Positions 1 through 16,772 of a DNA stretch of 17,770 nucleotides are shown in pieces. Both the position numbers and the translations under genes were made by a program. Location: UHGV virus genome UHGV-0302460; one strand, 5' to 3'. Each line of letters begins with the position of its first letter. Position 1 is the stretch's first letter. A model generated the notes under the pieces. That model was not told the origin of the DNA. It searched no databases and saw nothing but the letters and a program-made list of their open reading frames with translations. This stretch comes from a virus.

Positions 1-319
1 AGTGATGAGAGCAACAGGCTGAATCAGGGCGTGTTTGTTGATGACTGGGGGCGTCCCGAAAAATATCTGGTGTATAAAAGTCGTCCCGTATCCGGACGGC
101 AGATGGAAACCAAAGAAGTGGATGCAGAGCGAATGCAGACGTCCCGCGCATCTGGTGCAGACGGCGAACAAATTTAAGATGCAGCATTCGCTCTGCATCC
201 ACTTCTTTGGTTTCCATCTGCCGTCCGGATACGGGACGACTTTTATACACCAGATATTTTTCGGGACGCCCCCAGTCATCAACAAACACGCCCTGATTCA
301 GCCTGTTGCTCTCATCACT
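1..319. repeat. Perfect inverted repeat pair at left window edge: arm 1..136 is the reverse complement of arm 184..319, with a 47-bp non-palindromic spacer (137..183)
   Basis: Checked base by base: reverse complement of 1..136 equals 184..319; the match stops at 137/183. Arm 1 starts at the window boundary, so the repeat may continue beyond the window. Confidence 0.9.
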
Positions 320-856
320 GGTCATGGGAATAAAGTCTGGCTCGAGCGCCTCCAGCCAGAAATGAACACCGGCAGAAGGCGTCAGGCTGTTTATGCGCCC
401 GGAAACCATCTGGGCAAACACCTCACCATCGCGCAGCCAGGTACGCAGCATCAGACGTTCCAGCATCGGACGGGTAAACTGCCCGGTGACTTCCGGGCTG
501 ACAGACCATTCACTCCATCGGGTGCGAATCTCCGCAGCCAGGTCACGGGCAATGGCCCCATTGCGTAATACCGGATGTGGCTCGACAATAATCCCGTTTT
601 TCCCCACCACCCGTTCTTCCAGCTTGTCAAATACACCAATAACCAGATCGTGGTTGTTATCAAGGTAACGGGCCTGCTCACGTAACGACACGGCCCCGTA
701 CTGGCTTAGCTGGTCGGCAGTTCGGTTCTCCCGTCGGGCTTTGTGTGTCCGCGTCGTTTTTACGGCTTCATAAGCCTGGATCACCGCACGGGAACGCAGC
801 CTTGCCGCTTTCCATCCTGGTGAAAAAACGCCAATCACATCATCAAGAATTGCCAT
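137..856 (-). CDS. Phage portal protein, lambda-like family, 5' part only; the gene runs into the fold-back repeat
   Basis: ATG at 856..854 overlaps the gpW-like stop (TGATG). The frame is open to the window start. Translation MAILDDVIGVFSPGW...GVFVDDWGRPEKYLVYKSRPVSGRQMETKEVDAERMLHLKFVRRLHQMRGTS has portal-like character and the position after terminase and gpW fits. It was missing from the ORF track because it runs off the window edge. Codons read from 136..1 are the inverted copy of 184..319 and are probably not real portal sequence. Confidence 0.65.
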
Positions 857-1074
857 CAGAACCTCGCCAGCCGGTACCCGGGATGCCCCCGTCGTCGTGT
901 AATCAGAGCCGCAAGGCGGCGCTCCCACTCCTGCCGCCCCTGCCGGATCTCAGATAAGTTTTCCATGGTCATCTGCTGACCATTAAAGGTGACGGATTTT
1001 CCGTCCAGCACCGCCATTTCAGCTTCCGTATAACGCTGAATCATGGCTTCGATATCATTCTGGTTCATAACCAT
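856..1074 (-). CDS. gpW-like head-tail joining protein
   Basis: 72-aa ORF between large terminase and portal, the same position as lambda W. C-terminal RRRGHPGY resembles lambda W RRRGPAGF. Start overlaps the terminase stop. Confidence 0.55.
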   Translation of the reverse strand: MVMNQNDIEAMIQRYTEAEMAVLDGKSVTFNGQQMTMENLSEIRQGRQEWERRLAALITRRRGHPGYRLARF

Positions 1075-3167
1075 CCTCCGGAAGTCAGCCAGGGGTTAAC
1101 ATCGTCAGTTACTGTTTTCTTCCGTTTTTGTTTTTTAACAGGCGTGGATACCGGTTCCGGTGAGGATGACGGTTCGGTACTGTCCTGGACACACTCCAGC
1201 CAGGTTTCCCGGCTCGCCCACTCCGGTGCATCCGGCCAGCGGATCTTTTCGTATCCATGCAGAATGACCAGAGCCTCGGCATACACCATCAGGTCAAAAG
1301 CTTCGTTGGCACCGCGACCCGGCTTACTCCATTTCCCGTCACTGCTCCGCTCTTCATACGTCAGTTCGTCGTAAAACCAGCTCCCCAGCCAGTCAGGGAA
1401 ATGCACATAGCCGGGACCTGGCGAGTCACGCCATAACGCGTTATTCACCCGGTCTTTCAGTGCATCCGTCTGAAGAAGCCAGAGCGGCACATCACCTGCG
1501 GCCTGCGCCCGTCGGCCCGTTCGTCCGGTGTTATCAGGGAATGTACGGGTGATCAGTTTTGCGCGCCGGATGCTGTCGCCCTTAAACAGGTAAATACGTT
1601 TACCAAGGCCATCACGACGGCAACGACGCCAGAATTTATAGGCATTATCAGTGACCCCGTCTTCACCGCCGGAGTCCACCGCCATTGCCATCAGTCGCAT
1701 TTGTTGAGAAGGATCGGAGGCCAGCGGCCAGCTTTTATGAAAAACATCCGTCAGCAGGACATCCCAGTCTTCCGGATAGCTGGCCGGATCAATTCGCTGG
1801 CTCTCCCCGTCGCTGTCACCGCGCAATGACTGCGTGATGTTGTAACGATCAATAATCCAGCGTTCGCCACGGCTGCCATAGCCCGTTACCTGAACCACAA
1901 AACGGCGATGACGTCCCGCCTGCACATCCACTGTCGCCACAAGGAAATTAACGCCATCCGGCACACTGCGGGAAGGAACTGGCTCTGCCCGCTGCTCAAG
2001 CAGTTCACTTTTTCGTTGCTCCATGCTGGCGCGGGGAAGATAAGGTAATCCCCAGTCGGTATTGATAACCGTCTTGAGTGTTTCTTCACTTCCGGTTGTC
2101 TCGTATTCCTGTTCTGCAGTAAGCAGTTTGTAAACGAGTTGCGAGAGTGTCTGGTAAGCAGCTGCCGGACCCTCCATCCAGAATGACGCAATACGTGAGC
2201 GTCGGGGATCACCATAACGACTGCCATCCGCATTGATGGATTCACCATCCCGCAACCAGACCCCACGTCCGTTCAGCTCACGTTTTTGTTCAGGCATAAT
2301 CCGTCCTGAACAGGAAGGACACTGAATATAAGCCGCCTCACTTGCCAGCACGGGATCGGCAATATCACGGAAACCAGCAACCACATCGCCGCAGGGCTGA
2401 AAATACTCACCACAGTGTGGACAAGGCCAGTACCAGCGACGGCGATCGCCACGGTTATAGAGCGACAGTATCCCCGTGGTTGGTGGAGCCTCATGCGGTG
2501 AAGTCCGTCGCCATTTCACATCCTTCACATCCCTGCCGGGGGAACTCTCCACAAGCGTCATACCACTGGACATAAATGTTGTGGTACGTTTTGAGGCAAG
2601 AGAGAAAGCATCCCCCTCGCCATCAATATCTTCCGGAAAACGGTCATAATCCGTCAGCGCGACGCATTTATAATCTGATGAGGACATGATATTGACTGAC
2701 GGCCAGCCGATTTTCAGGTAGTTACCAGCAAGGAATGTTCTGTCATAAACGTTGTTGTCATTTTTGTTCGGACTCAGGCGACTGACCACTTCCGGGCTGA
2801 CGCGAAACGTTCTGGCGAGTCGTTTTTTGGAGTGTTCGCGGGCTTTTTCCTCCGTCATCTGTATGATCAGCATATCAGCAGGATCGCAAATCACGTTGTA
2901 AATCACCCAGCCGTCAATCAGGCCGATAGTCTTGCCGGTTCGTGCCGGGCCAACAAATATCACTGCGTCGTATTCACGCGAGGCCAGGCAGTTCATCGGC
3001 TCAATAACATACGGTGCCACCAGCGGATCCCACGGGACTGAGTTCCCTGCCCCCATGGGCACCCGCATATACTGAGCAACGGCATCAGCAACCCGCATTC
3101 GTCTCGGTGCGCGAAGGATATAACCTGAATCGGTTCGTGCTGCCTTTGCGGTTTCCTGATTCAGCAT
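1065..3167 (-). CDS. Terminase large subunit, lambda gpA-like
   Basis: 700-aa ORF with a Walker A-like GPARTGKT motif and a WPCPHCGEYFQ motif resembling lambda A ACPHCGEEQYL. Its ATG overlaps the stop of the upstream small terminase (TAATG). Confidence 0.85.
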   Translation of the reverse strand: MLNQETAKAARTDSGYILRAPRRMRVADAVAQYMRVPMGAGNSVPWDPLVAPYVIEPMNCLASREYDAVIFVGPARTGKTIGLIDGWVIYNVICDPADMLIIQMTEEKAREHSKKRLARTFRVSPEVVSRLSPNKNDNNVYDRTFLAGNYLKIGWPSVNIMSSSDYKCVALTDYDRFPEDIDGEGDAFSLASKRTTTFMSSGMTLVESSPGRDVKDVKWRRTSPHEAPPTTGILSLYNRGDRRRWYWPCPHCGEYFQPCGDVVAGFRDIADPVLASEAAYIQCPSCSGRIMPEQKRELNGRGVWLRDGESINADGSRYGDPRRSRIASFWMEGPAAAYQTLSQLVYKLLTAEQEYETTGSEETLKTVINTDWGLPYLPRASMEQRKSELLEQRAEPVPSRSVPDGVNFLVATVDVQAGRHRRFVVQVTGYGSRGERWIIDRYNITQSLRGDSDGESQRIDPASYPEDWDVLLTDVFHKSWPLASDPSQQMRLMAMAVDSGGEDGVTDNAYKFWRRCRRDGLGKRIYLFKGDSIRRAKLITRTFPDNTGRTGRRAQAAGDVPLWLLQTDALKDRVNNALWRDSPGPGYVHFPDWLGSWFYDELTYEERSSDGKWSKPGRGANEAFDLMVYAEALVILHGYEKIRWPDAPEWASRETWLECVQDSTEPSSSPEPVSTPVKKQKRKKTVTDDVNPWLTSGGWL

Positions 3168-3661
3168 TACTCCTCCCGCTGTAATTCCTCCTCATCATCC
3201 GCACCTGCTTCGGTCACCCGCAGGGCTATCTGATCGCGCAGATCATCAATAATGGACTGAACACGGCTCACAGCGGCAGGCTGCAGACCGCAGTCACGTT
3301 CAAGAATATCCGGTAATGTCTCCAGCACCTGCACGACCGCTTTTGCCCAGATGGCAAACTCCCGTCTGACATCACTGGCCGGAATGAGTTGTGCCGTTTC
3401 CTGTTCGAACTTAAGACGCTCACGTTCAGACTGATACCAGGCTTTGCGCTCATGCGCGTCCATTTCGCCTTCTGCAACCGGCGGTGGTAATGCCAGAAAT
3501 GCCGACACAATATCAACCACCCGATAAAGCTTGAGGTTGCTTTCATGCCCCCCTGCAACGGGTAGATTTTGCAGCCTTGCCGCAGCAGTCTGGCGATGTA
3601 CACCTGACAGTGCCGCCAGTTGACTGATATTCAGCGTCAGATTTTTTAACTCTCGATCCAT
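3167..3661 (-). CDS. Terminase small subunit, Nu1-like
   Basis: 164-aa ORF directly upstream of, and translationally coupled to, the large terminase. N-terminal HTH-like segment (LTLNISQLAALSGVHRQTAAARL) and acidic C-terminus. A cos-like site lies about 170 bp upstream. Confidence 0.65.
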   Translation of the reverse strand: MDRELKNLTLNISQLAALSGVHRQTAAARLQNLPVAGGHESNLKLYRVVDIVSAFLALPPPVAEGEMDAHERKAWYQSERERLKFEQETAQLIPASDVRREFAIWAKAVVQVLETLPDILERDCGLQPAAVSRVQSIIDDLRDQIALRVTEAGADDEEELQREE

Positions 3662-3824
3662 ACCCGCTCCAGAATGTTTTAAACATGCATCTTGCGAACA
3701 ACTTTAGGCAAACGGTGTTAGTGATGAACAAAAAACAATCAAAATCGACACCACAAAAATAAAACCACTGTAATATCAATACATTACAGCAGTGGTGATG
3801 ACGAATGAAATTTCAAAAACTAGC

Positions 3825-3880
3825 CTTTTTCCGCGACGCTCCCGCCCCGTGGCAGGCCACCCCACCGGAAGGACCCGCCA
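3825..3880 (-). other. Putative cos packaging site (cosQ/cosN-like)
   Basis: Minus strand reads GCGGGTCCTTCCGGTG...CCACG GGGCGGGAGCGT CGCGG. From memory, the lambda right end and cos read ACGGGTCCTTTCCGGTGATCCGACAGGTTACG GGGCGGCGACCT CGCGGG. The putative 12-nt core maps to 3836..3847 and matches the lambda cohesive end at 8 of 12 positions, with conserved flanks. Confidence 0.45.
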
Positions 3881-4114
3881 AAATGAGAGTGATTATCACC
3901 ATTGCTGATGAATAAATTGATGAAAATCATTGAAACGCCTTTCAGCAAGATAACGGCGACGGTCGTTGTTGAACTCCGTAGCTCTGCTACTAAGGTTAAA
4001 AGCATGGCCATCTTTTGCCACCGGCAAATCTTCAATGGATTTCCCCTGCCGGTTTTTTATTCCTCACATTATCGCAGCCCCTCAGTGAAGGGCTGCTGTA
4101 ATGCCTGCTCTTAC

Positions 4115-4477
4115 TCAGTAACGACCGCGCCTTCCGGTAATTTCATACCGGCAAATACCGGACAGCCCGGGGATCGTTATCTGCAGCTGGTTAGCCAGGG
4201 AGTTAATCTCAGCGACCAACACTGGCTTCGTATAGCGCCATGCCGCCAGCCCTTGTCCACAGAAGCTCGCCATATCTTTTTTCTGATCAAACTCATGACA
4301 CTTCATATTGAGCTGCGCACTTAAGCTGTTGCGATGCTGAAGTTCTCCGGTGAAGTAGTCATCCAGGACTTTATAGGCTGCATATTTAAATCCGGGGTTT
4401 AGCCATGCTGCATAATCATAAGCAACAAACTTCCCGCCATATGTTCCACCGTGTACACCGCGCTCAGTAAAAACCAC
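4115..4477 (-). CDS. Hypothetical protein; N-terminus resembles the C-terminal half of a KilA-N domain, possibly a 5'-truncated remnant
   Basis: 120-aa ORF with a GTG start 21 nt after the minus-strand Rz stop. GGTYGGKFVAYDYAAWLNPGF resembles the KilA-N C-terminal motif GTWvHp.lA...A.WLsPeF, but the N-terminal half of the domain is absent. Confidence 0.35.
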   Translation of the reverse strand: MVFTERGVHGGTYGGKFVAYDYAAWLNPGFKYAAYKVLDDYFTGELQHRNSLSAQLNMKCHEFDQKKDMASFCGQGLAAWRYTKPVLVAEINSLANQLQITIPGLSGICRYEITGRRGRY

Positions 4478-4498
4478 AGATTCGTGTTTTTTCTCCAG

Positions 4499-4645
4499 CT
4501 ACTTAATGCGCTGGGTGCGGATATATTCCTGCGCCCCTTCCAGTTGCTTCTGCATCGTCATCAACCGTTCTCTGAGGGTGAAATAATCCCGTTCAGCGGT
4601 GTCTGCCAGTCGGGGGCTGGTTGCATTATCCATGCTGGTGGGTCC
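4499..4645 (-). pseudogene. Rz (i-spanin) C-terminal fragment on minus strand
   Basis: Minus-strand translation ...[50 protein letters not shown] with stop at 4501..4499 matches the lambda Rz C-terminus pattern. Its upstream continuation is broken at 4645/4646. Confidence 0.6.
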
Positions 4646-4913
4646 CGCTGACATGCAGCAGCGTCAGCGTGATGTTGCTGCGATCGATGCAAAATACACG
4701 AAGGAGTTAGCCGATGCGAAAACTGAAAATGAAACTCTGCGCGCTGATGTTGCCGCTGGTCGTAAGCGCCTGCGGGTCAATGCCAGTTGCTCCGCAGCCG
4801 TGCGTGAAGCCACCGGACCCACCAGCATGGATAATGCAACCAGCCCCCGACTGGCAGACACCGCTGAACGGGATTATTTCACCCTCAGAGAACGGTTGAT
4901 GACGATGCAGAAG
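4646..4913 (+). pseudogene. Internal Rz fragment in inverted (plus) orientation
   Basis: Plus-strand translation [88 protein letters not shown] is a contiguous mid-to-C-terminal Rz segment. It lacks the N-terminal TM anchor and the native C-terminus. Confidence 0.6.
4714..4899 (+). CDS. Rz1-like o-spanin lipoprotein, copy 1, nested in the inverted Rz fragment
   Basis: 61 aa: [61 protein letters not shown]. Signal peptide with lipobox-like VVSAC and a proline-rich body, typical of lambda Rz1, in the +1 frame inside Rz. Confidence 0.6.
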
Positions 4914-5222
4914 GCGCTTACGACCAGCGGCAACATCAGCGCGCAGAGTTTCATTTTCAGTTTTCGCATCGGCTAACTCCTTCGTGTATTTTGCATCGAT
5001 CGCAGCAACATCACGCTGACGCTGCTGCATGTCAGCGATGGTGGCGGTCGCCTGCTTCAGCTCACTGACTTTTTTATCACGCTGTTCTTTGTAGGCGATG
5101 GCGTTATCACGGTAATGATTGACCGCCCACGACAGGCAGACGATGATGCAGATAACCAAAGCATAAATAATCGCGGCGACTCTGAGTGAGCTGAAGCAGT
5201 CGATCGCCACCATCGCTGACAT
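4912..5222 (-). pseudogene. Rz (i-spanin) N-terminal fragment on minus strand, with TM anchor
   Basis: Minus-strand translation ...[93 protein letters not shown] matches the lambda Rz N-terminus [21 protein letters not shown].... The expected native start near 5184 is replaced by a junction; the only ATG is a fortuitous one at 5222. The fragment ends at the 4911/4912 junction. Confidence 0.6.
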
Positions 5223-5526
5223 GCAGCAGCGTCAGCGTGATGTTGCTGCACTCGATGCAAAGTACTCGAGAGAATTAGCCAATGCGAAAGCTGAAAATGA
5301 AACTCTGCGCGCTGATGTTGCCGCTGGTCGTCGTCGGTTGCACATCAAAGCAGTCTGTCAGTCAGTGCGTGAAGCCACCACCGCCTCCGGCGTGGATAAT
5401 GCAGCCTCCCCCCGACTGGCAGACACCGCTGAACGGGATTATTTCACCCTCCGGGAACGACTGGTAATGATGCAGGCCCAACTTGAAGGTGCTCAGCAAT
5501 ACATAACCGAGCAGTGTTTAAAGTAA
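5185..5526 (+). pseudogene. Rz (i-spanin) copy 2, N-terminally truncated, lacking the TM anchor
   Basis: Translation (L)[113 protein letters not shown] is very close to lambda Rz from about residue 45 to the end. There is an in-frame stop at 5164..5166 and the first ATG is at 5221. This resembles the rzpR pseudogene situation in the K-12 Rac prophage. Confidence 0.7.
5282..5467 (+). CDS. Rz1-like o-spanin lipoprotein, copy 2
   Basis: 61 aa: [61 protein letters not shown], nearly identical to lambda Rz1 as I remember it. Lipobox VVGC; nested in the +1 frame of Rz copy 2. Confidence 0.8.
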
Positions 5527-5663
5527 AATCTTAACTACAATATGATTCATTTTGATGATTGTTTCATAAGGAACAGTGAAGTAAGATCTAAGAGGAGTTA
5601 AATTTTATACAGTATAATCATAATATTGCAGCAAGGTGGTTATAATTGAAAGAATATTTAGAT

Positions 5664-7121
5664 ATGAATACATCTCATGTAAGAGTTGTTACTCATATGT
5701 GTGGGTTCCTGGTTTGGCTCTATAGTCTTTCAATGTTGCCACCAATGGTTGTAGCATTGTTTTATAAAGAAAAAAGCCTGTTCGTTTTCTTTATAACTTT
5801 CGTTATATTTTTTTGCATTGGTGGCGGAGCGTGGTATACAACTAAGAAATCTGGCATTCAATTACGTACCCGTGATGGGTTTATTATAATTGTAATGTTT
5901 TGGATTTTGTTTTCTGTTATTAGTGCATTCCCTTTATGGATTGACTCAGAACTTAATTTAACGTTCATTGATGCTCTGTTTGAAGGGGTTTCTGGAATAA
6001 CAACAACAGGAGCAACTGTAATTGATGATGTTAGTTCATTACCTCGGGCATATTTGTACTATCGGTCACAGTTAAATTTTATAGGTGGTTTAGGAGTTAT
6101 TGTTCTGGCGGTTGCTGTATTGCCATTATTGGGTATTGGTGGTGCAAAGCTTTATCAGTCAGAAATGCCGGGGCCATTTAAGGATGACAAACTCACTCCC
6201 CGCCTGGCCGATACGTCACGGACACTGTGGATAACTTATTCTTTATTAGGTATTGCTTGTATTGTCTGTTATAGACTTGCAGGAATGCCTTTGTTTGATG
6301 CTATTTGTCACGGGATTTCCACAGTTTCGCTTGGTGGTTTCTCAACTCATAGCGAGAGTATCGGATATTTTAATAACTATTTGGTTGAGCTGGTGGCTGG
6401 TTCTTTTTCCCTGCTATCGGCTTTCAACTTCACTCTTTGGTATATTGTTATTAGCAGGAAAACGATAAAACCTTTAATCAGAGATATTGAACTTCGTTTC
6501 TTTCTGTTAATAGCCTTAGGGGTGATCATTGTTACCTCTTTCCAGGTCTGGCATATAGGTATGTATGACTTGCATGGAAGTTTTATTCATTCGTTTTTTC
6601 TTGCCAGCTCCATGCTCACTGATAATGGTTTAGCTACGCAGGATTATGCAAGTTGGCCCACGCACACGATAGTGTTTTTGCTGTTGTCAAGTTTCTTTGG
6701 GGGATGTATAGGTTCAACTTGTGGTGGAATTAAGTCACTTCGATTTCTTATACTTTTCAAACAAAGCAAACACGAGATAAATCAGCTTTCTCATCCCAGA
6801 GCGTTGTTGAGTGTAAATGTAGGAGGGAAGATAGTTACAGATCGTGTAATGAGGTCTGTATGGAGTTTCTTTTTTCTTTATACTCTCTTCACGGTGTTTT
6901 TTATACTGGTGTTAAATGGTATGGGATATGATTTTCTTACATCATTTGCAACAGTGGCTGCATGTATTAATAATATGGGATTAGGTTTTGGGGCTACTGC
7001 ATCGTCATTCGGAGTGCTTAATGACATTGCAAAATGTTTAATGTGCATAGCTATGATTCTTGGTCGCCTTGAAATTTATCCTGTTATTATATTGTTTTCA
7101 GGTTTTTTTTGGCGCTCCTAA
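5664..7121 (+). CDS. trkG: TrkH/TrkG-family potassium uptake membrane protein
   Basis: Reading from the ATG at 5664 gives 485 aa starting MNTSHVRVVTHMCGFLVWLYSLSM..., which I recognise as E. coli TrkG (a Rac prophage gene). It is a multi-pass membrane protein with GIGG-type selectivity-filter-like motifs (LLGIGG, GFGATA). The coding region is strongly AT-rich compared with its flanks. The ORF-track start at 5646 is a TTG upstream extension. Confidence 0.88.
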   Translation: MNTSHVRVVTHMCGFLVWLYSLSMLPPMVVALFYKEKSLFVFFITFVIFFCIGGGAWYTTKKSGIQLRTRDGFIIIVMFWILFSVISAFPLWIDSELNLTFIDALFEGVSGITTTGATVIDDVSSLPRAYLYYRSQLNFIGGLGVIVLAVAVLPLLGIGGAKLYQSEMPGPFKDDKLTPRLADTSRTLWITYSLLGIACIVCYRLAGMPLFDAICHGISTVSLGGFSTHSESIGYFNNYLVELVAGSFSLLSAFNFTLWYIVISRKTIKPLIRDIELRFFLLIALGVIIVTSFQVWHIGMYDLHGSFIHSFFLASSMLTDNGLATQDYASWPTHTIVFLLLSSFFGGCIGSTCGGIKSLRFLILFKQSKHEINQLSHPRALLSVNVGGKIVTDRVMRSVWSFFFLYTLFTVFFILVLNGMGYDFLTSFATVAACINNMGLGFGATASSFGVLNDIAKCLMCIAMILGRLEIYPVIILFSGFFWRS

Positions 7122-7258
7122 TATATGGCTGATTTATAATTGTGAGTTTAATATTATGTTGACTCACTCATTGATCCAATACCTAACTTTACCAGCAACC
7201 CCTCCGTCCCCAGTAGCACTGGCTGCTGGGGTGCGTTTTATTCATAAAGCAAGGCTGT

Positions 7259-8050
7259 ATGAGCGAGAAATTAAAGATAGTCTATCGCCCATTACAAGAA
7301 TTGTCACCGTATGCGCACAACGCCAGGACGCACAGTACTGAGCAGGTGGCACAACTGGTAGAAAGTATTAAGCAATTCGGCTGGACTAATCCGGTGCTGA
7401 TTGACGAAAAGGGCGAAATTATTGCGGGTCACGGTCGTGTTATGGCGGCTGAAATGCTCAAAATGGATTCTGTTCCGGTCATTGTTCTGTCTGGCCTGAC
7501 GGATGAGCAGAAAAAGGCGTACCGCCTGGCAGATAATCGCCTGCCGATGAATGCTGGCTGGGATGAAGATCTGTTGCGGATGGAGCTGTCGGACCTAATC
7601 AATGCTGATTTTGATGTCTCCCTGACAGGCTTCATCCCGACAGAAATTGATGAACTGTTGACGGATGTTTTGCCCGGTACAGGAAATGAGGAGGAGCCGT
7701 ATACGACGAAAATTGATACGCCTGTTTATGAGCCGTCGGGCGGTAAACCGGATATCAGTGAACTGTACGACGATACGAAAACTCAGGAGCTGATCAGCCG
7801 GATACGTTCGGCGTCCCTTGAGCCTGATATTGAGAAATTCCTCCTGTGTGCGGCAGAACGTCACACGGTGTTTAATTTCAGCAGAATTGCGGACTATTAC
7901 GCTCACGCCCCCTCTGAAATTCAGTGTTTTTTCGAGGAGTCGGCGCTGGTGATCATTGATTATCAGCAGGCTATTGAAAATGGATTTGTCCGGATGACGC
8001 AGCGCATGGTGGAGATCATGCATGGTGGTGAGGAGGAGGAATATGCGTGA
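7259..8050 (+). CDS. ParB-like nuclease domain protein
   Basis: The 263-aa N-terminus IVYRPLQELSPYAHNARTHSTEQVAQLVESIKQFGWTNPVLIDEKGEIIAGHGRVMAA fits the ParB/Srx N-terminal domain pattern (GxGR motif). The position after trkG matches the ynaK region of Rac. Confidence 0.7.
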   Translation: MSEKLKIVYRPLQELSPYAHNARTHSTEQVAQLVESIKQFGWTNPVLIDEKGEIIAGHGRVMAAEMLKMDSVPVIVLSGLTDEQKKAYRLADNRLPMNAGWDEDLLRMELSDLINADFDVSLTGFIPTEIDELLTDVLPGTGNEEEPYTTKIDTPVYEPSGGKPDISELYDDTKTQELISRIRSASLEPDIEKFLLCAAERHTVFNFSRIADYYAHAPSEIQCFFEESALVIIDYQQAIENGFVRMTQRMVEIMHGGEEEEYA

Positions 8051-8975
8051 TGATTTTTGCGCCTTTATTCTGACTCACGGGCGACCGGACAAAGTTCTGA
8101 CTTACCGGACGTTGCGTCGTGCTGGCTATACCGGGAAAATTTTTATCGTTGTTGATGATGAAGATAAGACACGGAATCAGTACATGGCTGAATTTGGTGA
8201 ACAGGTGCTGGTGTTTTCCAAAGCCGATATCGCCAGTCGTTTTGACGAAGCCGATAATTTCTGTGACCGCCGCTCAATTTTTTACGCCCGTAATGCCTGT
8301 TTCGACCTGGCAAAACTGGTCGGGTGTAAATACTTCATTCAGCTCGATGATGATTATCACGAGTTCCAGTTTCGGGTGGATCGCAACTATGACCAGGCCT
8401 ATTTTCCGATAAGGAAACTGGATGCGATCCTTTCTGAAATGCTGGCGTACTACGAATCAATACCTGCTCTTTCCATCGCTATGTCGCAGGGCGGGGATTT
8501 TCTTGGTGACAATGGCGGCCATGCTTCGTGGGTGAAACGCAAGGCAATGAACAGCTTTATCTGTTCGGTTGATCGACCGTTCTCATTCATGGGGCGCATT
8601 AACGAGGATGTGAATACGTACACGAATCTCGGTCGCTGTGGTGAATTGTTTATGACGATCGGTGCTGTCCAGTTAGGGCAGAAACAGACGCAGAAAAACA
8701 GCGGCGGAATGACCGAGCTGTATCTGGATTCCGCAACCTACGTTAAAAGTTTTTACTCCGTCATGTATGCGCCGTCGTGCGTAAAAATCTCACTGATGGG
8801 TGCCAGCCATAAACGCATTCACCATCAGGTCACCTGGAACAACGCTGCAGTAAAAATCCTTCACGAAAAATACAGGAAGAAGACACCCTGCATATCAATG
8901 GGGGTGACAAATGATTCCGTATTCGAAAGTCGAGTCTCTGGCAGCGTGCCGGATGACTGCACAACAAATCGCTGA
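8043..8975 (+). CDS. Hypothetical protein with possible GT-A glycosyltransferase-like features; function unknown
   Basis: ATG at 8043 follows a strong SD (GAGGAGGAGGA, 8029..8039) and overlaps the ParB-like stop, so it is preferred over the ORF-track start at 8022. N-terminal FILTHGRPDKVL...KIFIVVDDED and a later QLDDDY motif resemble a GT-A Rossmann-like fold with a DxD motif; this is a weak, motif-level call. Confidence 0.5.
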   Translation: MRDDFCAFILTHGRPDKVLTYRTLRRAGYTGKIFIVVDDEDKTRNQYMAEFGEQVLVFSKADIASRFDEADNFCDRRSIFYARNACFDLAKLVGCKYFIQLDDDYHEFQFRVDRNYDQAYFPIRKLDAILSEMLAYYESIPALSIAMSQGGDFLGDNGGHASWVKRKAMNSFICSVDRPFSFMGRINEDVNTYTNLGRCGELFMTIGAVQLGQKQTQKNSGGMTELYLDSATYVKSFYSVMYAPSCVKISLMGASHKRIHHQVTWNNAAVKILHEKYRKKTPCISMGVTNDSVFESRVSGSVPDDCTTNR

Positions 8976-9162
8976 CGTTCTGGATGTTGATCTGAACCGA
9001 CTGAAAGAAAATCGGGAAGCAATGACAGATTTTTATGCGGCCATCCGTAAGGGCAGAGCGAAAGGTGAAGCCGAGTTACGAGCGGCATTGTTTAAGCTTG
9101 CCAGAAAAGGGGATGCCTTTGCTCTGCGCGAACTACTCAGGGTGGATAAAAATCAGGACTAA
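8911..9162 (+). CDS. Small HTH-like protein, possibly terminase-associated
   Basis: 83-aa ORF immediately upstream of the small terminase. The helix-turn-helix-like segment MTAQQIADVLDVDLNRL is followed by a basic helical region. Start is uncertain (8911 or 8953); it overlaps the upstream gene by 65 nt if 8911 is used. Confidence 0.45.
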   Translation: MIPYSKVESLAACRMTAQQIADVLDVDLNRLKENREAMTDFYAAIRKGRAKGEAELRAALFKLARKGDAFALRELLRVDKNQD

Positions 9163-9165
9163 CTG

Positions 9166-10260
9166 ATGAGCAGACCGGACTGGGGGGCGTTGCAGCAGGA
9201 GTATATTGCTGAATACACCCGCTCCGGTATATCTCCGGTGGCATGGTGTGAAGCAAGGGGACTGAATTACGCAACAGCCCGTCGTTACATCAAAAAAACT
9301 CCGAAAAATGCGCAGACAGAAATGTGCAAAACTGCGCAAAAAAGTGCGCAGAAAAAATCTGCGCAGACTGCACAAAAGCGGAACGAAAAATCTCAGGAAA
9401 AAAAGCCAGTATTCGATGCGGGCCTGAATGAGGGCGACGCGGAGGAATTTTCGTTCTGTCCCGATGAATTCGGCATTTCTGACCAGCAGGCTAAGTTTGC
9501 GATGCTTGTTGCTCAGGGTAAAAAGCCGACAGAGGCGTACCGACTAGCCGGTTATGAGGGGCAAGGTGCGACAGCTAACAGCAACGCCAGTCGTATGCTT
9601 AGAAATGCCAGGGTTTTTCGCGCTATCAGCTACTTCCGCAATCAGTACCAGAAACGCTATACCGCAGACCTGGATTTACTAGTGAGTCAGTTGATGGCTA
9701 TTGTCCTGGCCGACCCCAATCAGCTTGCACAATTTCGCCGTGTTAACTGCCGTTATTGCTGGGGCGAGAATCATCTCTACCAGTGGCGCGATATAGCAGA
9801 ATTCGACAAGGCAGCGGCGCAGGCTTCCAGAGATGGCAAACCCGAACCGGAATATGGAGGCCTCGGCTTTGTTGATAACGCCATACCCAATCCGGACTGC
9901 CCGAAGTGCTGCGGTGAGGGAACGGGACAGCTTTATATGGCTGATACCACTCTGCTTGATGGGGATGCGCGGCAATTATATGCAGGGGCAAAATTCGGAA
10001 AATTCGGCGTTGAGATCCTGCTGGAGGATAAGGCTGCCGCCCGGCGTGAATTGTTGCGTTTGTTTTCTGCTGGCGGGGCTTTATGTGCAGATAAACGGCT
10101 ACAGGAACTGGAAATTGAACGGCGCAGAATGGAAAACCAGAAGCTGCGCAAAGAGATCGAAACGGTGGAAGATAATGAACATCCCCAGCCTGTGGCGATC
10201 AATATTAATGTGGTTGATGCCAGAGTAAGGAGTGATGAAGATGATCTCTCCGACGCTTAA
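9166..10260 (+). CDS. Terminase small subunit (P27-like family), long form with Cys4 motif
   Basis: Central segment ISDQQAKFAMLVAQGKKPTEAYRLAGYEG...NASRMLRNARV matches the terminase small-subunit signature. It sits directly upstream of the large terminase. It also has a low-complexity K/A/Q-rich stretch, a CRYCWG...CPKCCGEG zinc-ribbon-like motif and a C-terminal coiled-coil-like segment. Confidence 0.7.
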   Translation: MSRPDWGALQQEYIAEYTRSGISPVAWCEARGLNYATARRYIKKTPKNAQTEMCKTAQKSAQKKSAQTAQKRNEKSQEKKPVFDAGLNEGDAEEFSFCPDEFGISDQQAKFAMLVAQGKKPTEAYRLAGYEGQGATANSNASRMLRNARVFRAISYFRNQYQKRYTADLDLLVSQLMAIVLADPNQLAQFRRVNCRYCWGENHLYQWRDIAEFDKAAAQASRDGKPEPEYGGLGFVDNAIPNPDCPKCCGEGTGQLYMADTTLLDGDARQLYAGAKFGKFGVEILLEDKAAARRELLRLFSAGGALCADKRLQELEIERRRMENQKLRKEIETVEDNEHPQPVAININVVDARVRSDEDDLSDA

Positions 10261-11542
10261 TGTGCCTCAGGCGCGATTTCTTTCAATGCCCCATAAATTT
10301 AAAGCCTATATTGCTGGTTTTGGCTCGGGCAAAACATGGGTTGGGTGTGGCGGCATATGCAAGGGGATTTGGGAGCATCCAGGTATAAATCAGGGATATT
10401 TTGCGCCAACGTATCCCCAAATTCGCGATATTTTTTACCCTACAGTGGAAGAAGTTGCTGCTGACTGGGGATTGAACGTAAAAATTAATGAGGGAAATAA
10501 AGAGGTTCACTTTTATTACGGACGCCAGTATCGGGGAACCACTATCTGCAGATCGATGGAGAAGCCACAAACGATCGTCGGTTTCAAAATTGGTAATGCG
10601 TTGGTGGATGAACTGGACATTTTGCCGAAGGAAAAAGCCAGAACGGCGTGGCGCAAGATAATTGCACGTATGCGTTATAAGATTGATGGACTTCGCAACG
10701 GTATTGACGTTACAACCACGCCGGAAGGATTCAAATTTGTCTACGAGCAGTTTGTTAAAGCCGTGCGTGAAAAAACAGAGCTGGCCTCACTGTATGGTCT
10801 GGTGCAGGCATCTACTTTCGATAATGAAAAGAACCTGCCAGCAGATTACATTCCTTCGCTTCTTGAATCATACCCTCCAGAGCTGATTAAAGCCTATCTT
10901 CGAGGACAGTTTACTAACCTGACAAGTGGTACTGTTTACCATCAGTTTGACCGGAAACTGAATAATTGCGAAGAAGTGGAGCAGCCAGGGGAGCCGATTT
11001 ATATTGGGATGGATTTTAACGTTGGAAAGATGGCGGGAATCGTCCATGTGCTGCGTTTGGGGCTTCCATGTGCGGTAACTGAAATCATCAATGCCTACGA
11101 TACGCCGGATATGATCCGCATCATTAAAGAACGCTTCTGGCTGTATGATGGGAATGATTACCGGAAAGTGAGGGAAATTTATATTTATCCAGATGCTTCC
11201 GGGGATTCCAGAAAATCAAGTAACGCAAGTACGACGGATATAGCCCAGCTTAAGCAGGCTGGTTTTAACGTTGTGGTGAACAGCTCGAACCCGCCAGTAA
11301 AAGATCGCGTTAACTCAATGAATGCAATGTTCTGCAATGCCAATGGTGAGCGTCGCTATAAAGTTAATGTGAAGCGTTGCCCGTTATATGCCGAATCTCT
11401 GGAGCAACAGGTCTGGGATGAGAAGGGGGAGCCTGATAAAAAATCTGGCAATGATCACCCGAATGATGCCGGAGGTTATTTCATCGTTAAGCAATTCCCT
11501 ATTGTCAAACCGACCGGAAGAGTCACATCACTTCGGATTTAA
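10241..11542 (+). CDS. Terminase large subunit
   Basis: Walker A-like AGFGSGKTW near the N-terminus, nuclease-type acidic residues in the C-terminal half, and a position between small terminase and portal. The ATG at 10241 is preferred because of the AAGGAG at 10227..10232; alternative starts are the GTG at 10232 and the ATG at 10235. Confidence 0.85.
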   Translation: MISPTLNVPQARFLSMPHKFKAYIAGFGSGKTWVGCGGICKGIWEHPGINQGYFAPTYPQIRDIFYPTVEEVAADWGLNVKINEGNKEVHFYYGRQYRGTTICRSMEKPQTIVGFKIGNALVDELDILPKEKARTAWRKIIARMRYKIDGLRNGIDVTTTPEGFKFVYEQFVKAVREKTELASLYGLVQASTFDNEKNLPADYIPSLLESYPPELIKAYLRGQFTNLTSGTVYHQFDRKLNNCEEVEQPGEPIYIGMDFNVGKMAGIVHVLRLGLPCAVTEIINAYDTPDMIRIIKERFWLYDGNDYRKVREIYIYPDASGDSRKSSNASTTDIAQLKQAGFNVVVNSSNPPVKDRVNSMNAMFCNANGERRYKVNVKRCPLYAESLEQQVWDEKGEPDKKSGNDHPNDAGGYFIVKQFPIVKPTGRVTSLRI

Positions 11543-11544
11543 TT

Positions 11545-12951
11545 ATGGCTGATATATCAACACCCAACCTCGACTATAACGATATGCTGGAGGCGTGGGA
11601 TATTAACGACGCACTGATGGGCGGTACGCTTGAAATGCGCAGGCAGGGGGAAAATTATCTCCCAAAATGGCCTAACGAAGATGAAGACGCTTATAAAAAA
11701 CGCCTGTCTGTGGCTACGCTACTTCCTGTGTATGAAGAAAGCATCAAGCAAAATATTGGGCGCATATTTGCAGAGCCGACAGTATTGAGTGAGGAAACGC
11801 CGGCAAAAATCAGGGAATATGCAGAAAATATCGACATGGAGGGGAGCCGACTGGATGTGTGGGCGCAGCAATTTTTCAGCCTCGCATTTCAGTATGGTGT
11901 GGCACATGCGCTGGTGGACTATCCACGAACGGATATGAAAGAGATTCGTACAAAAGCCGATGAAAACGCGACCGGTGGTCGTCCGTACGTTACGATGCTG
12001 AATCCACGCCAGGTTATTGGATGGAAATCGAAAGTTGAAAAAGGGAAAGTTGTTCTCACTGATTTGCGTATAAAAGAGGTCATCATTATTGATGGTGATG
12101 ATTTCGGGCAGAAGAAGGTGGAGCAGATCCGCCATATTATGCCCCGTCGAGTTGAAATTTATCGACGTAGCGAAGGCACTAATGGCGAATCTGTCTGGAC
12201 GCTTCATGAGTCATGGAATACCAGCCGTGATGATATTCCTCTGGTAACACTGTACACGAAGAAAACAGGATTTATGCGTGGTACACCGCCATTGCTTAAT
12301 CTTGGCTTGCTGAATATCAAGCACTGGCAAAGCCAGAGCGAGCAGGACAATATTCTTCATGTTACCCGCGTTCCATTGCTGGTGGCCTACGGGCTGGACA
12401 GGAATGAAGAACTGACGGTTGGTGCATCCACCGCTACGATTTTTGAGGACAGAACAAAAAATGGCCTCGAATATGTTGAACATAGTGGCGCAGCGATAGA
12501 ATCTGGCGAAACATCACTTGAGAAGCTGGAAAATCAGATGCGTCATGCCGGCGCTAAACTTCTGCGTGCTGAAAATACATCCACCAAATCTGTTGATCAG
12601 ACTAATGAAGAGCGAATGCAGGAAAACTCGCCGCTTTATACAATGGCGAACTCCCTCGAAGATGCCCTCGATAATATTCTCCAGATAATGGCGGAATGGA
12701 TCGGAGAGAGTTGCGGTGGCAATGTGGATGTGCGCACTGAACTGGATGTATCTGCCCAGGTGTTTGACTCATCCTCCGCGCTGGCTGTTCAGTCATTGCG
12801 TCAGGGCGGTGATATACGTCAGATTGATGCGGTTCGGGTGTTGCAGGCGTTGAAATTTATCGATCAGGATTCCCGTCCAGAGGAAGTGATCGATGAATTA
12901 AAAAATCAGAGTGTAATGCTGATGGAAATCAATGATGCAAACCGTGAATGA
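11545..12951 (+). CDS. Phage portal protein
   Basis: 468-aa ORF immediately after the large terminase and before the head-morphogenesis gene, with size and position typical of a portal. No motif was verified. Confidence 0.7.
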   Translation: MADISTPNLDYNDMLEAWDINDALMGGTLEMRRQGENYLPKWPNEDEDAYKKRLSVATLLPVYEESIKQNIGRIFAEPTVLSEETPAKIREYAENIDMEGSRLDVWAQQFFSLAFQYGVAHALVDYPRTDMKEIRTKADENATGGRPYVTMLNPRQVIGWKSKVEKGKVVLTDLRIKEVIIIDGDDFGQKKVEQIRHIMPRRVEIYRRSEGTNGESVWTLHESWNTSRDDIPLVTLYTKKTGFMRGTPPLLNLGLLNIKHWQSQSEQDNILHVTRVPLLVAYGLDRNEELTVGASTATIFEDRTKNGLEYVEHSGAAIESGETSLEKLENQMRHAGAKLLRAENTSTKSVDQTNEERMQENSPLYTMANSLEDALDNILQIMAEWIGESCGGNVDVRTELDVSAQVFDSSSALAVQSLRQGGDIRQIDAVRVLQALKFIDQDSRPEEVIDELKNQSVMLMEINDANRE

Positions 12952-14047
12952 ACGGCTGCGTGATGAATCAATTGCTCATGCAGTCTGGATATCCCGCTAT
13001 AGCACTGGCGTGGCTGCCAGAATGGTGAAAATACTGAATGACAGCGATGCGGAACTTACTGCTCGCCTGCTGATAGCACTGGACAGCCTCGATCCAGGTA
13101 ATTTTACCGTTAAGCGCCTGGAGTCACTTCTGGCGAGCGTCAGAGAGGTTAACCGCACTGCTATTAACAGCATGTTTACCAGTCTCTCCGGAGAGCTGAA
13201 CGAGCTGGCAATTTATGAGGCTGGTTATCAGTTAAGTCTGTTTGATTCTATGCTACCTGATTTTGTTGCTGATGTTCACCCTCTGGTTGGTATCTCTCCT
13301 GATGCACTTTATGCCGCTGCAATGGCGCGACCATTCCAGGGACGACTGCTCAGTGAGTGGGCCTCAGATCTTGAGGCGGATCGGCTCAGACGCATAACAA
13401 ATACAGTGCGTCAGGGTTTTTTGCTGGGGGATACCAATGAGCAGATCGCAAGAAAAATTCGGGGACATGTCAGTAAGGGATTTCAGGATGGTGCATTGCA
13501 GATGAGCCGGGCTAATGCGGCCAGCATTGCAAAAACAGCGGTTGGACATCTTGCTGCTACTGCCCGTGAGAGTTTTGCCAGCGCGAATAATGATTTGATT
13601 AAGGGTAAGCAATGGTTATCAACGCTTGATAATCGTACTACGCCACAATGTCGAATCAGGGATCGCCTCAAATATACGCTGAATAATAAACCTGTAGGTC
13701 ACAGCGTGCCTTATTTGCAGGGGCCGGGAAAAATTCATTTCTGCTGCCGCTCAACGGAAACGTTCATTCTGAAATCAGCGAAGGAACTGGGTATTGATGT
13801 TCGCGATATTTCCCCGGCTGAGCGGGCCAGCATGGATGGCGTGGTGGCCGGAGATACAACCTACAGGGAATGGTTTTTGCGTCAGCCTTACACCAGACAA
13901 AAACAGATTGTGGGGGAAACCCGAGCAAAGCTGATTCGGGATGGTGGTATGTCGCCAGATGAATTTTACACCGATAAAGGCGAATGGCTGACGCTGAAGC
14001 AGCTCCGTGAGCGTGATGCACAGGTATTCAGAAAAGCAGGGATTTAA
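12932..14047 (+). CDS. Head morphogenesis protein (Mu F-like / SPP1 gp7-like minor head protein)
   Basis: 371 aa following the portal. Contains the characteristic ...LSTLDNRTTPQCRIRD... motif seen in Mu F-like head morphogenesis proteins. Confidence 0.7.
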   Translation: MMQTVNERLRDESIAHAVWISRYSTGVAARMVKILNDSDAELTARLLIALDSLDPGNFTVKRLESLLASVREVNRTAINSMFTSLSGELNELAIYEAGYQLSLFDSMLPDFVADVHPLVGISPDALYAAAMARPFQGRLLSEWASDLEADRLRRITNTVRQGFLLGDTNEQIARKIRGHVSKGFQDGALQMSRANAASIAKTAVGHLAATARESFASANNDLIKGKQWLSTLDNRTTPQCRIRDRLKYTLNNKPVGHSVPYLQGPGKIHFCCRSTETFILKSAKELGIDVRDISPAERASMDGVVAGDTTYREWFLRQPYTRQKQIVGETRAKLIRDGGMSPDEFYTDKGEWLTLKQLRERDAQVFRKAGI

Positions 14048-14066
14048 ATAAATCATTTATTACAAC

Positions 14067-14093
14067 AGGCTACCTTCGGGTGGCCTTTTTTAT
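14067..14093 (+). terminator. Putative rho-independent terminator (UUCG tetraloop hairpin plus T-tract)
   Basis: AGGCTACC-TTCG-GGTGGCCT forms an 8-bp stem (one G-T wobble) with a TTCG loop, followed by TTTTTTATT, just downstream of the head-morphogenesis stop. Confidence 0.55.
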
Positions 14094-14151
14094 TGCTGCG
14101 ATCCGGATGGTGAGCAGCGTAACTGTCGGAAGACTTAAACCAGGTACTAAT

Positions 14152-14916
14152 ATGAAACTGAAAACGGTCGAGATTAACGGAAAACAATACGCAGAAATTG
14201 ATACTGCTGGCCTGCCAGTTTATGTGCACGACGATGGTAAAGAAATTGGCTTCGATGCACCGCTGGCGACAAAAAAAATTACAGAGCTTAATGGCGAGGC
14301 AAAAAATCATCGCCTGGCTAAAGAAGCTGCAGAGGAAAAACTGGCTAAGTTTGCCGCTATCGAAGACCCGAAGAAGGCGATCGAGGCACTGGAAATGCTG
14401 TCAAAAATCGACCAGAAAAAGCTGCTCGATGCGGGACAGGTTGACCAGGTTAAGGCAGAAATTACGAAAAATTTTCAGCAGCAATTAGATGAAGAAAAGC
14501 AACGCTCTCAGATGCTGGAGAAGCAGCTTTACGATTCTATGATTGGCGGTAGTTTTGCGGGTTCAAAATATATTGCCGATAAAATTGCGATCCCGGCAGA
14601 TTTATTACAAGCCCGCTTCGGGCAGGCATTCAAAGTGGAAGAAGGGAGGATCGTTGCTTATGACGCTTCCGGCAACAAAATTTATTCCCGCGCGAAGCCT
14701 GGCGAACTGGCGCAGTTTGATGAGGCGCTGGAGTTCCTTGTCGAAAATTACCCTCAGAAAGACTACATCCTGAAAGCCAGTGGCAACAATGGCGGCGGCT
14801 CCCGTCCGACACAGCATGATATTGGTCAGAAAACGATGAAACGCTCTGCTTTTGATGCACTGGATGTTGCAGGTAAGCAAAACGCATTGAAAGACGGTAT
14901 CACAATCGTTGATTAA
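14152..14916 (+). CDS. Scaffolding protein (putative)
   Basis: About 254 aa, charged and predicted helical (EEKLAKFAAIEDPKKAIEALEMLSKIDQKKLL...), located immediately upstream of the major capsid gene. Start is uncertain (ATG 14152 preferred; ATG 14107 possible). The ORF-track start at 14080 would lie inside the terminator hairpin. Confidence 0.55.
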   Translation: MKLKTVEINGKQYAEIDTAGLPVYVHDDGKEIGFDAPLATKKITELNGEAKNHRLAKEAAEEKLAKFAAIEDPKKAIEALEMLSKIDQKKLLDAGQVDQVKAEITKNFQQQLDEEKQRSQMLEKQLYDSMIGGSFAGSKYIADKIAIPADLLQARFGQAFKVEEGRIVAYDASGNKIYSRAKPGELAQFDEALEFLVENYPQKDYILKASGNNGGGSRPTQHDIGQKTMKRSAFDALDVAGKQNALKDGITIVD

Positions 14917-15014
14917 CACATTTGTCAGCTTCCGGATGGGAGCTGGTGTCAGGGCTGGATAGCTCATTACTCCATCTATTCACAATTACGCAAATTTTTA
15001 AGGAATATTTAATT

Positions 15015-16154
15015 ATGGCTGGAAATACCCTGACCGGGTTGATCCCGACTATTTATACCGCCCTGGATGTTGTATCCCGTGAGCAGGTAGGTTTTATCCC
15101 TGCGGTAGCAAAAAACGCAAAAGCTGACGCCGCAGCAAAAGATCAGACGGTAACCGCGCCAGTTGCGCCTGAGGCGAAAACCGAAGATATCGTACCGGGG
15201 CCGTCAGCTCCGAATACCGGTGATCAAAATATTGGCACTGTTGATGTAAAAATTACTAAATCCAAAATGGCACCGGTTAAATGGAATGGTGAAGAACAAC
15301 TGGCTCTTGGCCCTTCAGGGACTTACAACACCATTCTGGCTGATCAGTTCAAGCAGGCTTTTCGCGCCCTTGCAAACGAGGTTGAGGCTGATCTTGGTGC
15401 GTTGTATTTCGGTGCTTCCCGCGCCGTGGGAACCGCAGGGACAACGCCGTTTGGTGTTAAAGATGATCTTTCTGATGCTGCTCTGGCTCGTCAGGTTCTG
15501 GAGGATAACGGCGCACCGACAACCGATCTGCAGATGGTGCTTGGCTCCACTGCCATTGCTAATTTGCGCGGAAAACAGTCTGTATTGTTTAAAGTGAATG
15601 AATCCGGCACTGAACAGCTACTGCGTGAGGGCGTGTTGGGGCGTCTGGAGGGATTCAATATTCACAGTTCGGCAGGTGTGAAACGAGCGCCAAAGGTTGC
15701 TGCAACTGGTTATCTCGTGAATGGAGAGAAAAAAGAAGGCGATGTTCTTATTTCCATTGATACTGGTTCGGGGAGTATTTCTGCAGGTCAGATTGTTACG
15801 TTCGCTGGTGATCCGAATCAGTATGTTGTGGCAGCAGCGACCAGCAATCTGATTACTCTTGCAGCGCCCGGACTGCGTCAGGATCTGGCCGATGATACTG
15901 CCATCACAGTTGTTGGGGCCTTTACGGCAAATATGGCGTTTGATCGCAACGCGTTTCTGCTGGCATCCCGTACTCCGGCAATGCCGGAAGGTGGCGATAA
16001 TGCTGATGATGTAATGAATGTTACGGACCCGATTTCAGGGATTACGTTCCAGATTGCACTGTATCGTCAGTATCGCCAGGTGCGCTATGAAGTTGGACTG
16101 GCATGGGGTGTTTCATCAGTGAAGCCGGCACATGGTTGTCTGATTCTTGGTTAA
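15015..16154 (+). CDS. Major capsid protein (putative)
   Basis: ATG at 15015 follows AAGGA. About 379 aa, downstream of the scaffold and followed by a strong terminator. Segments such as TPFGVKDDLSDAALARQVLEDNGAP and GVLGRLEGFNIHSS resemble phage coat proteins. Confidence 0.7.
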   Translation: MAGNTLTGLIPTIYTALDVVSREQVGFIPAVAKNAKADAAAKDQTVTAPVAPEAKTEDIVPGPSAPNTGDQNIGTVDVKITKSKMAPVKWNGEEQLALGPSGTYNTILADQFKQAFRALANEVEADLGALYFGASRAVGTAGTTPFGVKDDLSDAALARQVLEDNGAPTTDLQMVLGSTAIANLRGKQSVLFKVNESGTEQLLREGVLGRLEGFNIHSSAGVKRAPKVAATGYLVNGEKKEGDVLISIDTGSGSISAGQIVTFAGDPNQYVVAAATSNLITLAAPGLRQDLADDTAITVVGAFTANMAFDRNAFLLASRTPAMPEGGDNADDVMNVTDPISGITFQIALYRQYRQVRYEVGLAWGVSSVKPAHGCLILG

Positions 16155-16164
16155 ACATTCAAAC

Positions 16165-16187
16165 GGGGCTTCGGCCCCATTTTTAAT
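16165..16187 (+). terminator. Putative rho-independent terminator (UUCG tetraloop hairpin plus T-tract)
   Basis: GGGGC-TTCG-GCCCC followed by ATTTTTAAT, 11 nt after the capsid stop. Confidence 0.55.
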
Positions 16188-16196
16188 GGGGGGCAT

Positions 16197-16373
16197 ATGG
16201 CCGGATTAACTAAAGAGCAAAGAGCACAGCGTGAAGCCGCACAAAAAACGCAAATTGAGTTAGTGGTTATGGTGACCGATTATCAGATGTTTCCCGGCGC
16301 ACCAACTATCGCTAATGTTCATCCTGATGAAGTTGACAACTGGAAGGCTGTGGGCTGGAAAACTCAGGAGTAA
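16197..16373 (+). CDS. Small hypothetical phage protein (58 aa)
   Basis: ATG at 16197 is preceded by a G-rich SD-like stretch. Translation MAGLTKEQRAQREAAQKTQIELVVMVTDYQMFPGAPTIANVHPDEVDNWKAVGWKTQE. It exactly fills the gap between the capsid terminator and the next gene. It falls below the ORF-track size cut-off. Confidence 0.4.
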   Translation: MAGLTKEQRAQREAAQKTQIELVVMVTDYQMFPGAPTIANVHPDEVDNWKAVGWKTQE

Positions 16374-16376
16374 CAC

Positions 16377-16772
16377 ATGATCACTTACGTGACCTGTGAT
16401 GACGTTGATAATGCGTTTGGGAACGCCTGGACGAGTGAGAACGCTAAAAATAAAGCTGTTTTAATGGCTAATGCCTGGCTTAATGGCTTCAACCTGAAAA
16501 TTAACCCATCCCGTATTCCGGAAGAGGTAAAACTTGCGGGAGCATATGCAGCCAGAATTGCCTCATTCGGTAAGTTGTTTCAGCAGAAAAATGATTCTGG
16601 CGTTGTTATCAGTAAAGCCGTGTCGGCTGACGGGGTCAGTGTATCGAAATCATTTTCTGAGTTGCCAGCAAACAGCACTGCATTGCTTGAACCCGATTTA
16701 CAGCTTGCGATAGCACTGCTGAAACCGTACGGACTTAGTCGCTCACAAGTCAGGGTTGTGAGGGGGGGATAA
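16377..16772 (+). CDS. Head-tail connector / head completion protein (gp6-like, putative)
   Basis: 131 aa with a good RBS (AGGAG). Size and position after the capsid are typical of a head-tail connector protein. Confidence 0.45.
   Translation: MITYVTCDDVDNAFGNAWTSENAKNKAVLMANAWLNGFNLKINPSRIPEEVKLAGAYAARIASFGKLFQQKNDSGVVISKAVSADGVSVSKSFSELPANSTALLEPDLQLAIALLKPYGLSRSQVRVVRGG

Follow-up and report, generated by a model that had tools for sequence, protein, structure and literature searches.

The spanin genes of lambda-type phages are nested, with Rz1 (PF06085) embedded in the +1 frame of Rz (PF03245), and relatives of this type have an intact Rz of 154–155 aa downstream of a holin and an endolysin. 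In the cryptic prophage Rac of E. coli K-12 the genes rzpR and rzoR lie directly upstream of trkG, where rzpR is a pseudogene and rzoR is intact. Template-switch inverted duplications are represented by quasi-palindrome mutations in E. coli and by DUP-TRP/INV-DUP rearrangements in human genomes. An Rz/Rz1 locus of the virus genome UHGV-0302460, analysed as part of a window of 17,770 nt, had been predicted from its letters to be a zig-zag of four Rz segments joined through inverted repeats, and the original prediction attributed this to replication template switching or repeated inversion. As in the lambda-type genes, Rz1 is embedded in the +1 frame in the window, where there are two complete copies; unlike the lambda-type relatives, the window contains neither a holin nor an endolysin, and it has no whole Rz.

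All of the pieces of 4499–5526 are Rz sequence and match Pfam Phage_lysis (PF03245). When mapped to an intact natural Rz (468 nt, E. coli E41, locus L001), which is the reference for all Rz coordinates given here, they resolve into the four alternately oriented segments that had been predicted (Table 1). The two perfect inverted repeats were likewise recovered as described, 4547–4645 against 4815–4913 (99 nt) and 4646–4771 against 4912–5037 (126 nt), both at 100% identity, and the divergence of the duplicated arms is zero. A third inverted pair, 4920–5066 against 5185–5331, is imperfect (147 nt, 93%). In the whole window the longest perfect inverted match is 136 nt, against a mean of 14.7 nt and a maximum of 18 nt in 50 dinucleotide-preserving shuffles of the same sequence.

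Table 1. Features of the window in order of position. Rz nucleotides are numbered on the E41 gene; jump-back is the distance moved backwards at a junction before the sequence resumes on the opposite strand.
Feature	Position	Strand	Details
Left terminal fold-back arm	1..136		Perfect reverse complement of 184–319; loop 47 nt (137–183)
Left-end junction	136/137		Jump-back 47 nt; microhomology 0 nt
Late region, lambda-like prophage A	137..4498	-	99.7% colinear with E. coli E41; Pfam matches
Portal gene, 5' part	856 down to 137	-	Prophage A
Small ORF			Prophage A; listed between portal and TerL
TerL	1065–3167	-	Prophage A
DUF1441	3167–3661	-	Prophage A
ORF11CD3/KilA-like gene	4115–4477	-	Prophage A
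Rz allele A, nt 322–468	4499..4645	-	C-terminus and stop codon; 100% to E41 Rz; PF03245 positions 78–125
J1	4645/4646		Jump-back 169 nt; microhomology 0 nt
Rz allele A, nt 153–420	4646..4913	+	Opposite to neighbours; 100% to E41 Rz; intact Rz1 ORF 4714–4899
J2	within 4911–4914 (~4912/4913)		Jump-back 140–142 nt; 2 nt shared
Rz nt 6–278	4912..5184	-	Includes transmembrane anchor; 97.8% to E41 Rz; mosaic
J3 (Rz 6/124)	5184/5185		Jump-back 118 nt; microhomology 0 nt
Rz nt 124–465, different, Rac-type allele	5185..5526	+	Beside trkG; intact Rz1 ORF 5282–5467
Rac-like prophage B	5527..17532	+	Colinear with FDAARGOS_497 at 98.2% and with ten other natural loci
trkG	5664–7121	+	Prophage B
ParB_N/ynaK-like gene	7259–8050	+	Prophage B
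TAGT/GREB1-related gene (PF20691)	8043–8975		Between the ParB-like gene and the small terminase of prophage B
TerS, TerL, portal (DUF4055), Mu_F-like gene, capsid genes, head-tail genes		+	Prophage B
IS903-group (IS5 family) element, first 102 nt	17533..17634	+	In HK97 gp10-like gene; IS label from matching records
Right-end junction	17634/17635		Jump-back 143 nt; microhomology 0 nt
Right terminal fold-back arm	17635..17770		Perfect reverse complement of 17356–17491; loop 143 nt

In Rz coordinates the topology is a-B-A'-m'-B'-A-c, in which B is Rz 153–278, m is 279–321 and A is 322–420; the unique core at 4772–4814 is 43 nt long and corresponds to m. This agrees with the predicted order of blocks and with the predicted core, and an inverted copy flanked by duplicated blocks is the topology of a template-switch inverted duplication. 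Two boundaries required correction. The minus-strand N-terminal segment had been extended to 5222, but its Rz homology stops at 5184, and at the middle junction 2 nt (4912–4913) are shared rather than 2–3 bp. The ATG at 5222 is fortuitous, 5185–5222 being the reverse strand of the second, plus-strand Rz copy. The start codon and the first 5 nt of Rz are missing from segment 4912–5184. When the three left segments are un-zigzagged, the result is a colinear, intact Rz of 155 aa, which matches approximately 100 complete genomes from end to end at 99.2%.

None of the ORFs in the window encodes a complete Rz, with the N-terminal transmembrane anchor and the full periplasmic domain in one frame. The ORF at 4707–5222 on the minus strand covers only positions 1–66 of PF03245, and the ORF at 5221–5526 on the plus strand, which is without the anchor, covers positions 26–125. 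The Rz1 ORFs at 4714–4899 and 5282–5467 are intact, at 61 aa each, with PF06085 E-values of 1e-18 and 2e-19, and both are lipoprotein ORFs embedded out of frame in Rz, as is characteristic of o-spanins. The expectation that neither Rz copy would be intact and that both nested Rz1 would be is therefore correct on the evidence of the ORFs and of both Pfam families. A third Rz1 start, truncated to 31 aa, is present in the minus-strand segment (4874–4969, minus strand), where it is cut by J2.

The Rz segments included, window 137–4645 is a minus-strand block of prophage A and 5185–17532 is a plus-strand block of prophage B, and the late regions of these two different phages meet back to back across broken Rz genes. 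Twenty natural loci, ten per phage type, were retrieved via the exact TerL or ParB-like proteins. All 20 are colinear with holin, endolysin and Rz, and a back-to-back join of the late regions of two prophages is found in none of them. In the ten with an identical TerL, of the prophage A type, the holin-lysozyme-Rz order is upstream in 10/10, and in E41 itself Rz is preceded by a holin and a lysozyme. Rz is not downstream of such genes in the window. The original prediction had proposed a comparison with the syntenic locus in related genomes, and no zig-zag is seen in any of the 20. It had also described one Rz/Rz1 spanin locus; this holds for the pieces, but not for a single lysis cassette, since the Rz genes come from two different prophages.

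Two genes of prophage B have annotations that vary between genomes. The ParB_N protein at 7259–8050 is full-length at 263 aa. At this site K-12 carries just the short ynaK (264 nt), and a pseudogene is annotated in many RefSeq genomes; the exact 263-aa protein is listed in 11,863 blocks of the assembly collection. The PF20691 (TAGT) gene is annotated in some genomes as encoding a GREB1-related protein.

The three junctions within the Rz locus are of the same class as the junctions at the two ends of the window, which the original prediction had not noted. In all five the sequence halts, jumps back 47–169 nt and resumes on the opposite strand. A microhomology of at least 2 nt is present at only one of the five (J2) and the other four are blunt, so that at J1–J3 the microhomology or short inverted repeat looked for at each switch point amounts to 0, 2 and 0 nt; no quasi-palindrome was found at the breakpoints. 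Both terminal arms are exactly 136 nt long with 100% identity, and no perfect repeat in the contig is longer than this. Because both arms end exactly at the edges of the window, the window appears to be one whole contig of 17,770 nt. The equal arms imply that the assembly had a technical parameter of 136 or 137, and a final k of about 137 is suggested, with arms of k-1 nt when the graph extension meets its own reverse strand. At the left end, the phage sequence of E41 is colinear from 137 onward and goes natively past the fold-back point. The inner junctions are spaced at 266–268 and 271–273 nt, which is suggestively close to 2 x 136, although no model that was tried accounts for this.

At the right end an independent assembly is available. 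Native phage sequence ends at 17532, where an IS follows ...GGCTTACAA and interrupts the HK97 gp10-like head-tail gene of prophage B. The truncated gp10-like gene product led to the ENA metagenome contig ERZ27269943 k141_17825, an independent MEGAHIT assembly, which has 0 mismatches to window 7156–17634 (10.5 kb) and the same IS insertion at 17533. None of 5,426 complete E. coli genomes has this insertion, which, being also present in k141_17825, appears to be a real strain marker. At the base of the right-end fold-back, k141_17825 continues natively into the IS (…AGAATCA followed by CCAACTGGTCC…), whereas the window turns back (…AGAATCA followed by GCCAGTTGGCG…). A second assembly of the same allele therefore lacks the right-end fold-back. 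For J1–J3 a search for a same-strain assembly gave none, and the natural loci are all colinear.

Searches for the inner junctions elsewhere were negative. Among 5,426 complete E. coli genomes, none covered 80% or more of a 120-nt probe centred on J1, J2 or J3, or of the whole 1.2-kb locus; each half of each probe is common in these genomes. A 40-mer across J1 is absent from IMG/VR, the JGI metagenomes and the GTDB representative genomes; no junction match was found in GenBank phages, and the junction-spanning ORFs are absent from a collection of 15 billion proteins.

At least three natural Rz alleles are involved in the locus: allele A of E41, the trkG-linked allele B, and the type of strain 4/0, which is linked to iss. 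Segment 4912–5184 differs from E41 Rz at six positions, all at nt 12–31. Its nt 6–138 are identical to the strain 4/0 allele and its nt 32–278 are identical to allele A, a mosaic that is found in no complete genome, the best match being 99.2% and always with the same 6 mismatches. In segment 5185–5526, nt 124–342 are identical to the strain 4/0 allele. Compared with a natural trkG-linked allele (L003; ENA contig LIJI17-1_SAMEA3951668 scaffold_33722, nt 9–473), this segment has differences only at nt 137, 139 and 189, with 99.1% identity over 5185–5526 and 99.4% over 5185–5676. The L003 Rz has an in-frame TAG at about codon 36, and consequently the same 101-aa ORF is called in L003 as in the window. 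Rz decay beside trkG appears to be recurrent.

The two arms of J3 are not identical at Rz 139 (window 5051 versus 5200), and between its two sides there are differences at Rz 139, 143, 189 and further positions. Along the path through the locus there are two allele switches within identical stretches, plus three fold-backs. Switching inside identical stretches is what a walk through a repeat graph would produce, and J3 may be interpreted as a fold-back in a single copy from which the path then passed into the A copy; no junction between distant prophages is needed for this reading.

The window holds two ordinary prophage fragments, which five junctions of the same class join to each other and close off at either end. 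Judged from sequence comparison, the zig-zag is very probably an artefact of the library or assembly and not a genomic structure. This is suggested by the fold-backs with exactly 136-nt arms that form both contig ends, by the single class to which all five junctions belong, with near-zero microhomology, and by the independent contig k141_17825, in which the right-end fold-back is missing. It is also suggested by the absence of every junction from the collections searched, by the intact 155-aa Rz, colinear with about 100 genomes, that unfolding yields, and by the colinearity of 20/20 natural loci set against a window without holin or endolysin in which two phages stand back to back. The zero divergence of the duplicated arms and the allele switches of 4912–5184 and 5185–5526 inside identical stretches point the same way. 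As would be seen in an artefact, the junction class recurs where the contig ends, and the arms there share one length that is linked to a technical parameter. Replication template switching or repeated inversion, the cause given in the original prediction, agrees neither with the 0, 2 and 0 nt of microhomology at J1–J3 nor with the terminal fold-backs of the same class; an origin in the genome is likewise at odds with the contradiction of the right-end fold-back by k141_17825 and with the absence of the junctions from all public collections searched. The caveat attached to that prediction, an assembly artefact, is the better explanation and the most likely one.

An E. coli genome has several Rz alleles, and contigs therefore normally break at Rz. 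In this contig the assembler may have walked through the Rz repeat tangle instead of breaking, switching on the way from allele B to the 4/0 type within Rz 190–342 and from the 4/0 type to allele A within Rz 32–138. Three fold-back links would have been used, one in the 4/0-type or B copy (Rz 6/124) and two in the A copy (278/420 and 153/322). Each link could be the read pair of one short fragment joined head to head, mate 2 not having been reverse-complemented, in which case the jump-back distance would be the insert length minus the read length and would correspond to ordinary insert sizes. The terminal arms would result from extension of a de Bruijn graph, with k about 137, into its own reverse strand. 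A point against this model is that in its simple form, a single k=137 de Bruijn graph with one chimeric fragment per junction, it fails at J3, where the arms are not identical at Rz 139; either an earlier iteration with a smaller k or several events would be needed. MEGAHIT at k=141 with unsplit 2x136-nt reads would, by reasoning, fit the 136-nt terminal arms but would leave the inner pieces unconnected. Blunt junctions could also be produced in principle by illegitimate recombination in vivo.

An unlikely variant of the artefact is that the fold-backs were real library molecules, made in vitro and then faithfully assembled. A strand-displacing polymerase (phi29 in MDA, or SISPA/Klenow random priming) would have switched to a nearby displaced strand. 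Of the chimeras formed in MDA of E. coli, 85% join segments in inverted orientation with a deletion between them, nearby segments being favoured, and 93.5% of the inverted chimeras with ends <10 kb apart show 2 nt or more of complementarity where they join (Lasken and Stockwell 2007, PMC1855051). The junction class seen five times here is of this kind, with nearby segments joined in inverted orientation, the stretch between them deleted, and jump-backs of 47–169 nt, and the sister contig k141_17825 derives from a metagenome. Complementarity of at least 2 nt is, however, found at 1/5 junctions, and at a rate of 93.5% the probability of no more than one in five is roughly 1e-4 (own calculation); the equal 136-nt terminal arms are also unexplained by polymerase switching. 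Because 4/5 junctions are blunt, MDA-type switching is ranked below an origin in read pairs or the assembler. A real rearrangement in vivo, in one strain, is very unlikely. Template switching or break-induced replication would have generated an inverted duplication in the Rz of prophage A, and a further inverted join to the Rz of a Rac-like prophage would have followed, with both early regions deleted. The a-B-[A'm'B']-A-c topology is the product of two strand switches, the perfect arms fit a recent event, and Rz is dispensable in a prophage, so there would be no selection removing the rearrangement. Known in-vivo template-switch mechanisms need breakpoint microhomology or a quasi-palindrome, and there is none here; the same junction class, with equal 136-nt arms, caps both contig ends, one terminal junction is contradicted by the independent assembly, and the junctions are absent from every collection searched. 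The event would also leave two prophages with only late genes back to back, which is seen at 0/20 natural loci. The form that it would have to take, very recent, homology-independent, with serial strand switches without microhomology and with two late regions fused, is accordingly given very little weight.

It is extremely unlikely that the locus is a mixture, in which J3 is a real illegitimate deletion between two divergently oriented prophages and J1, J2 and the terminal hairpins are artefacts. The sides of J3 do come from different alleles, which a single-fragment fold-back does not predict. The breakpoints of J3 are nevertheless only 118 nt apart in Rz (6 and 124), which a local fold-back explains and which would be a coincidence for a distant deletion, and J3 is absent from the 5,426 complete genomes. 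Left nt 6–138 and right nt 124–342 are moreover both identical to the strain 4/0 allele, and with this common identity a fold-back in one copy plus an allele switch explains the data.

Several other sources of inverted sequence do not fit. Site-specific inversion of the Gin/Pin or shufflon type was rejected, as there is no invertase gene and there are no crossover repeats, and inversion alone would not explain the duplicated blocks. From homologous recombination between inverted Rz copies one would expect colinear hybrid phages rather than two late regions back to back, and the junctions are at non-homologous positions. An IS-mediated inversion at the right end would place the joint at the terminus of the IS, but it lies 102 nt within the element. 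The palindromes generated by missed PacBio adapters or by hairpin telomeres are loop-free, and the loops here consist of 47–169 nt of native sequence. Nor is the break at Rz 124 the truncation of the K-12 Rac prophage, which keeps Rz from about nt 28.

Short-read contigs can hold blunt fold-back joins in multi-copy prophage genes and at their ends, and these mimic inverted duplications. They can be recognised quickly: the hairpin arms at both ends have the same length, the joints are blunt, and searches of thousands of complete genomes do not find the junctions. A real structure of this kind would be an unusual complex rearrangement, free of homology, that unites two prophages and touches only a dispensable lysis gene.

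Among known systems, rzpR/rzoR of the K-12 Rac prophage occupy the same position as 5185–5526, and K-12 and the window are 96.8% identical over 5185–6000. The copy in the window resembles that pair in having a truncated Rz with an intact Rz1, but in K-12 the Rz homology reaches about nt 28 and abuts ydaW, whereas the window breaks at nt 124. Template-switch inverted duplications also have an inverted middle copy with duplicated flanks, resulting from two strand switches; unlike the window, they have inverted microhomology at the switch points and no hairpins at contig ends. The inverted chimeras of MDA nearly always have 2–21 nt of complementarity, in contrast to the four blunt junctions out of five found here, but they are likewise inverted joins of nearby positions with an intervening deletion (PMC1855051).
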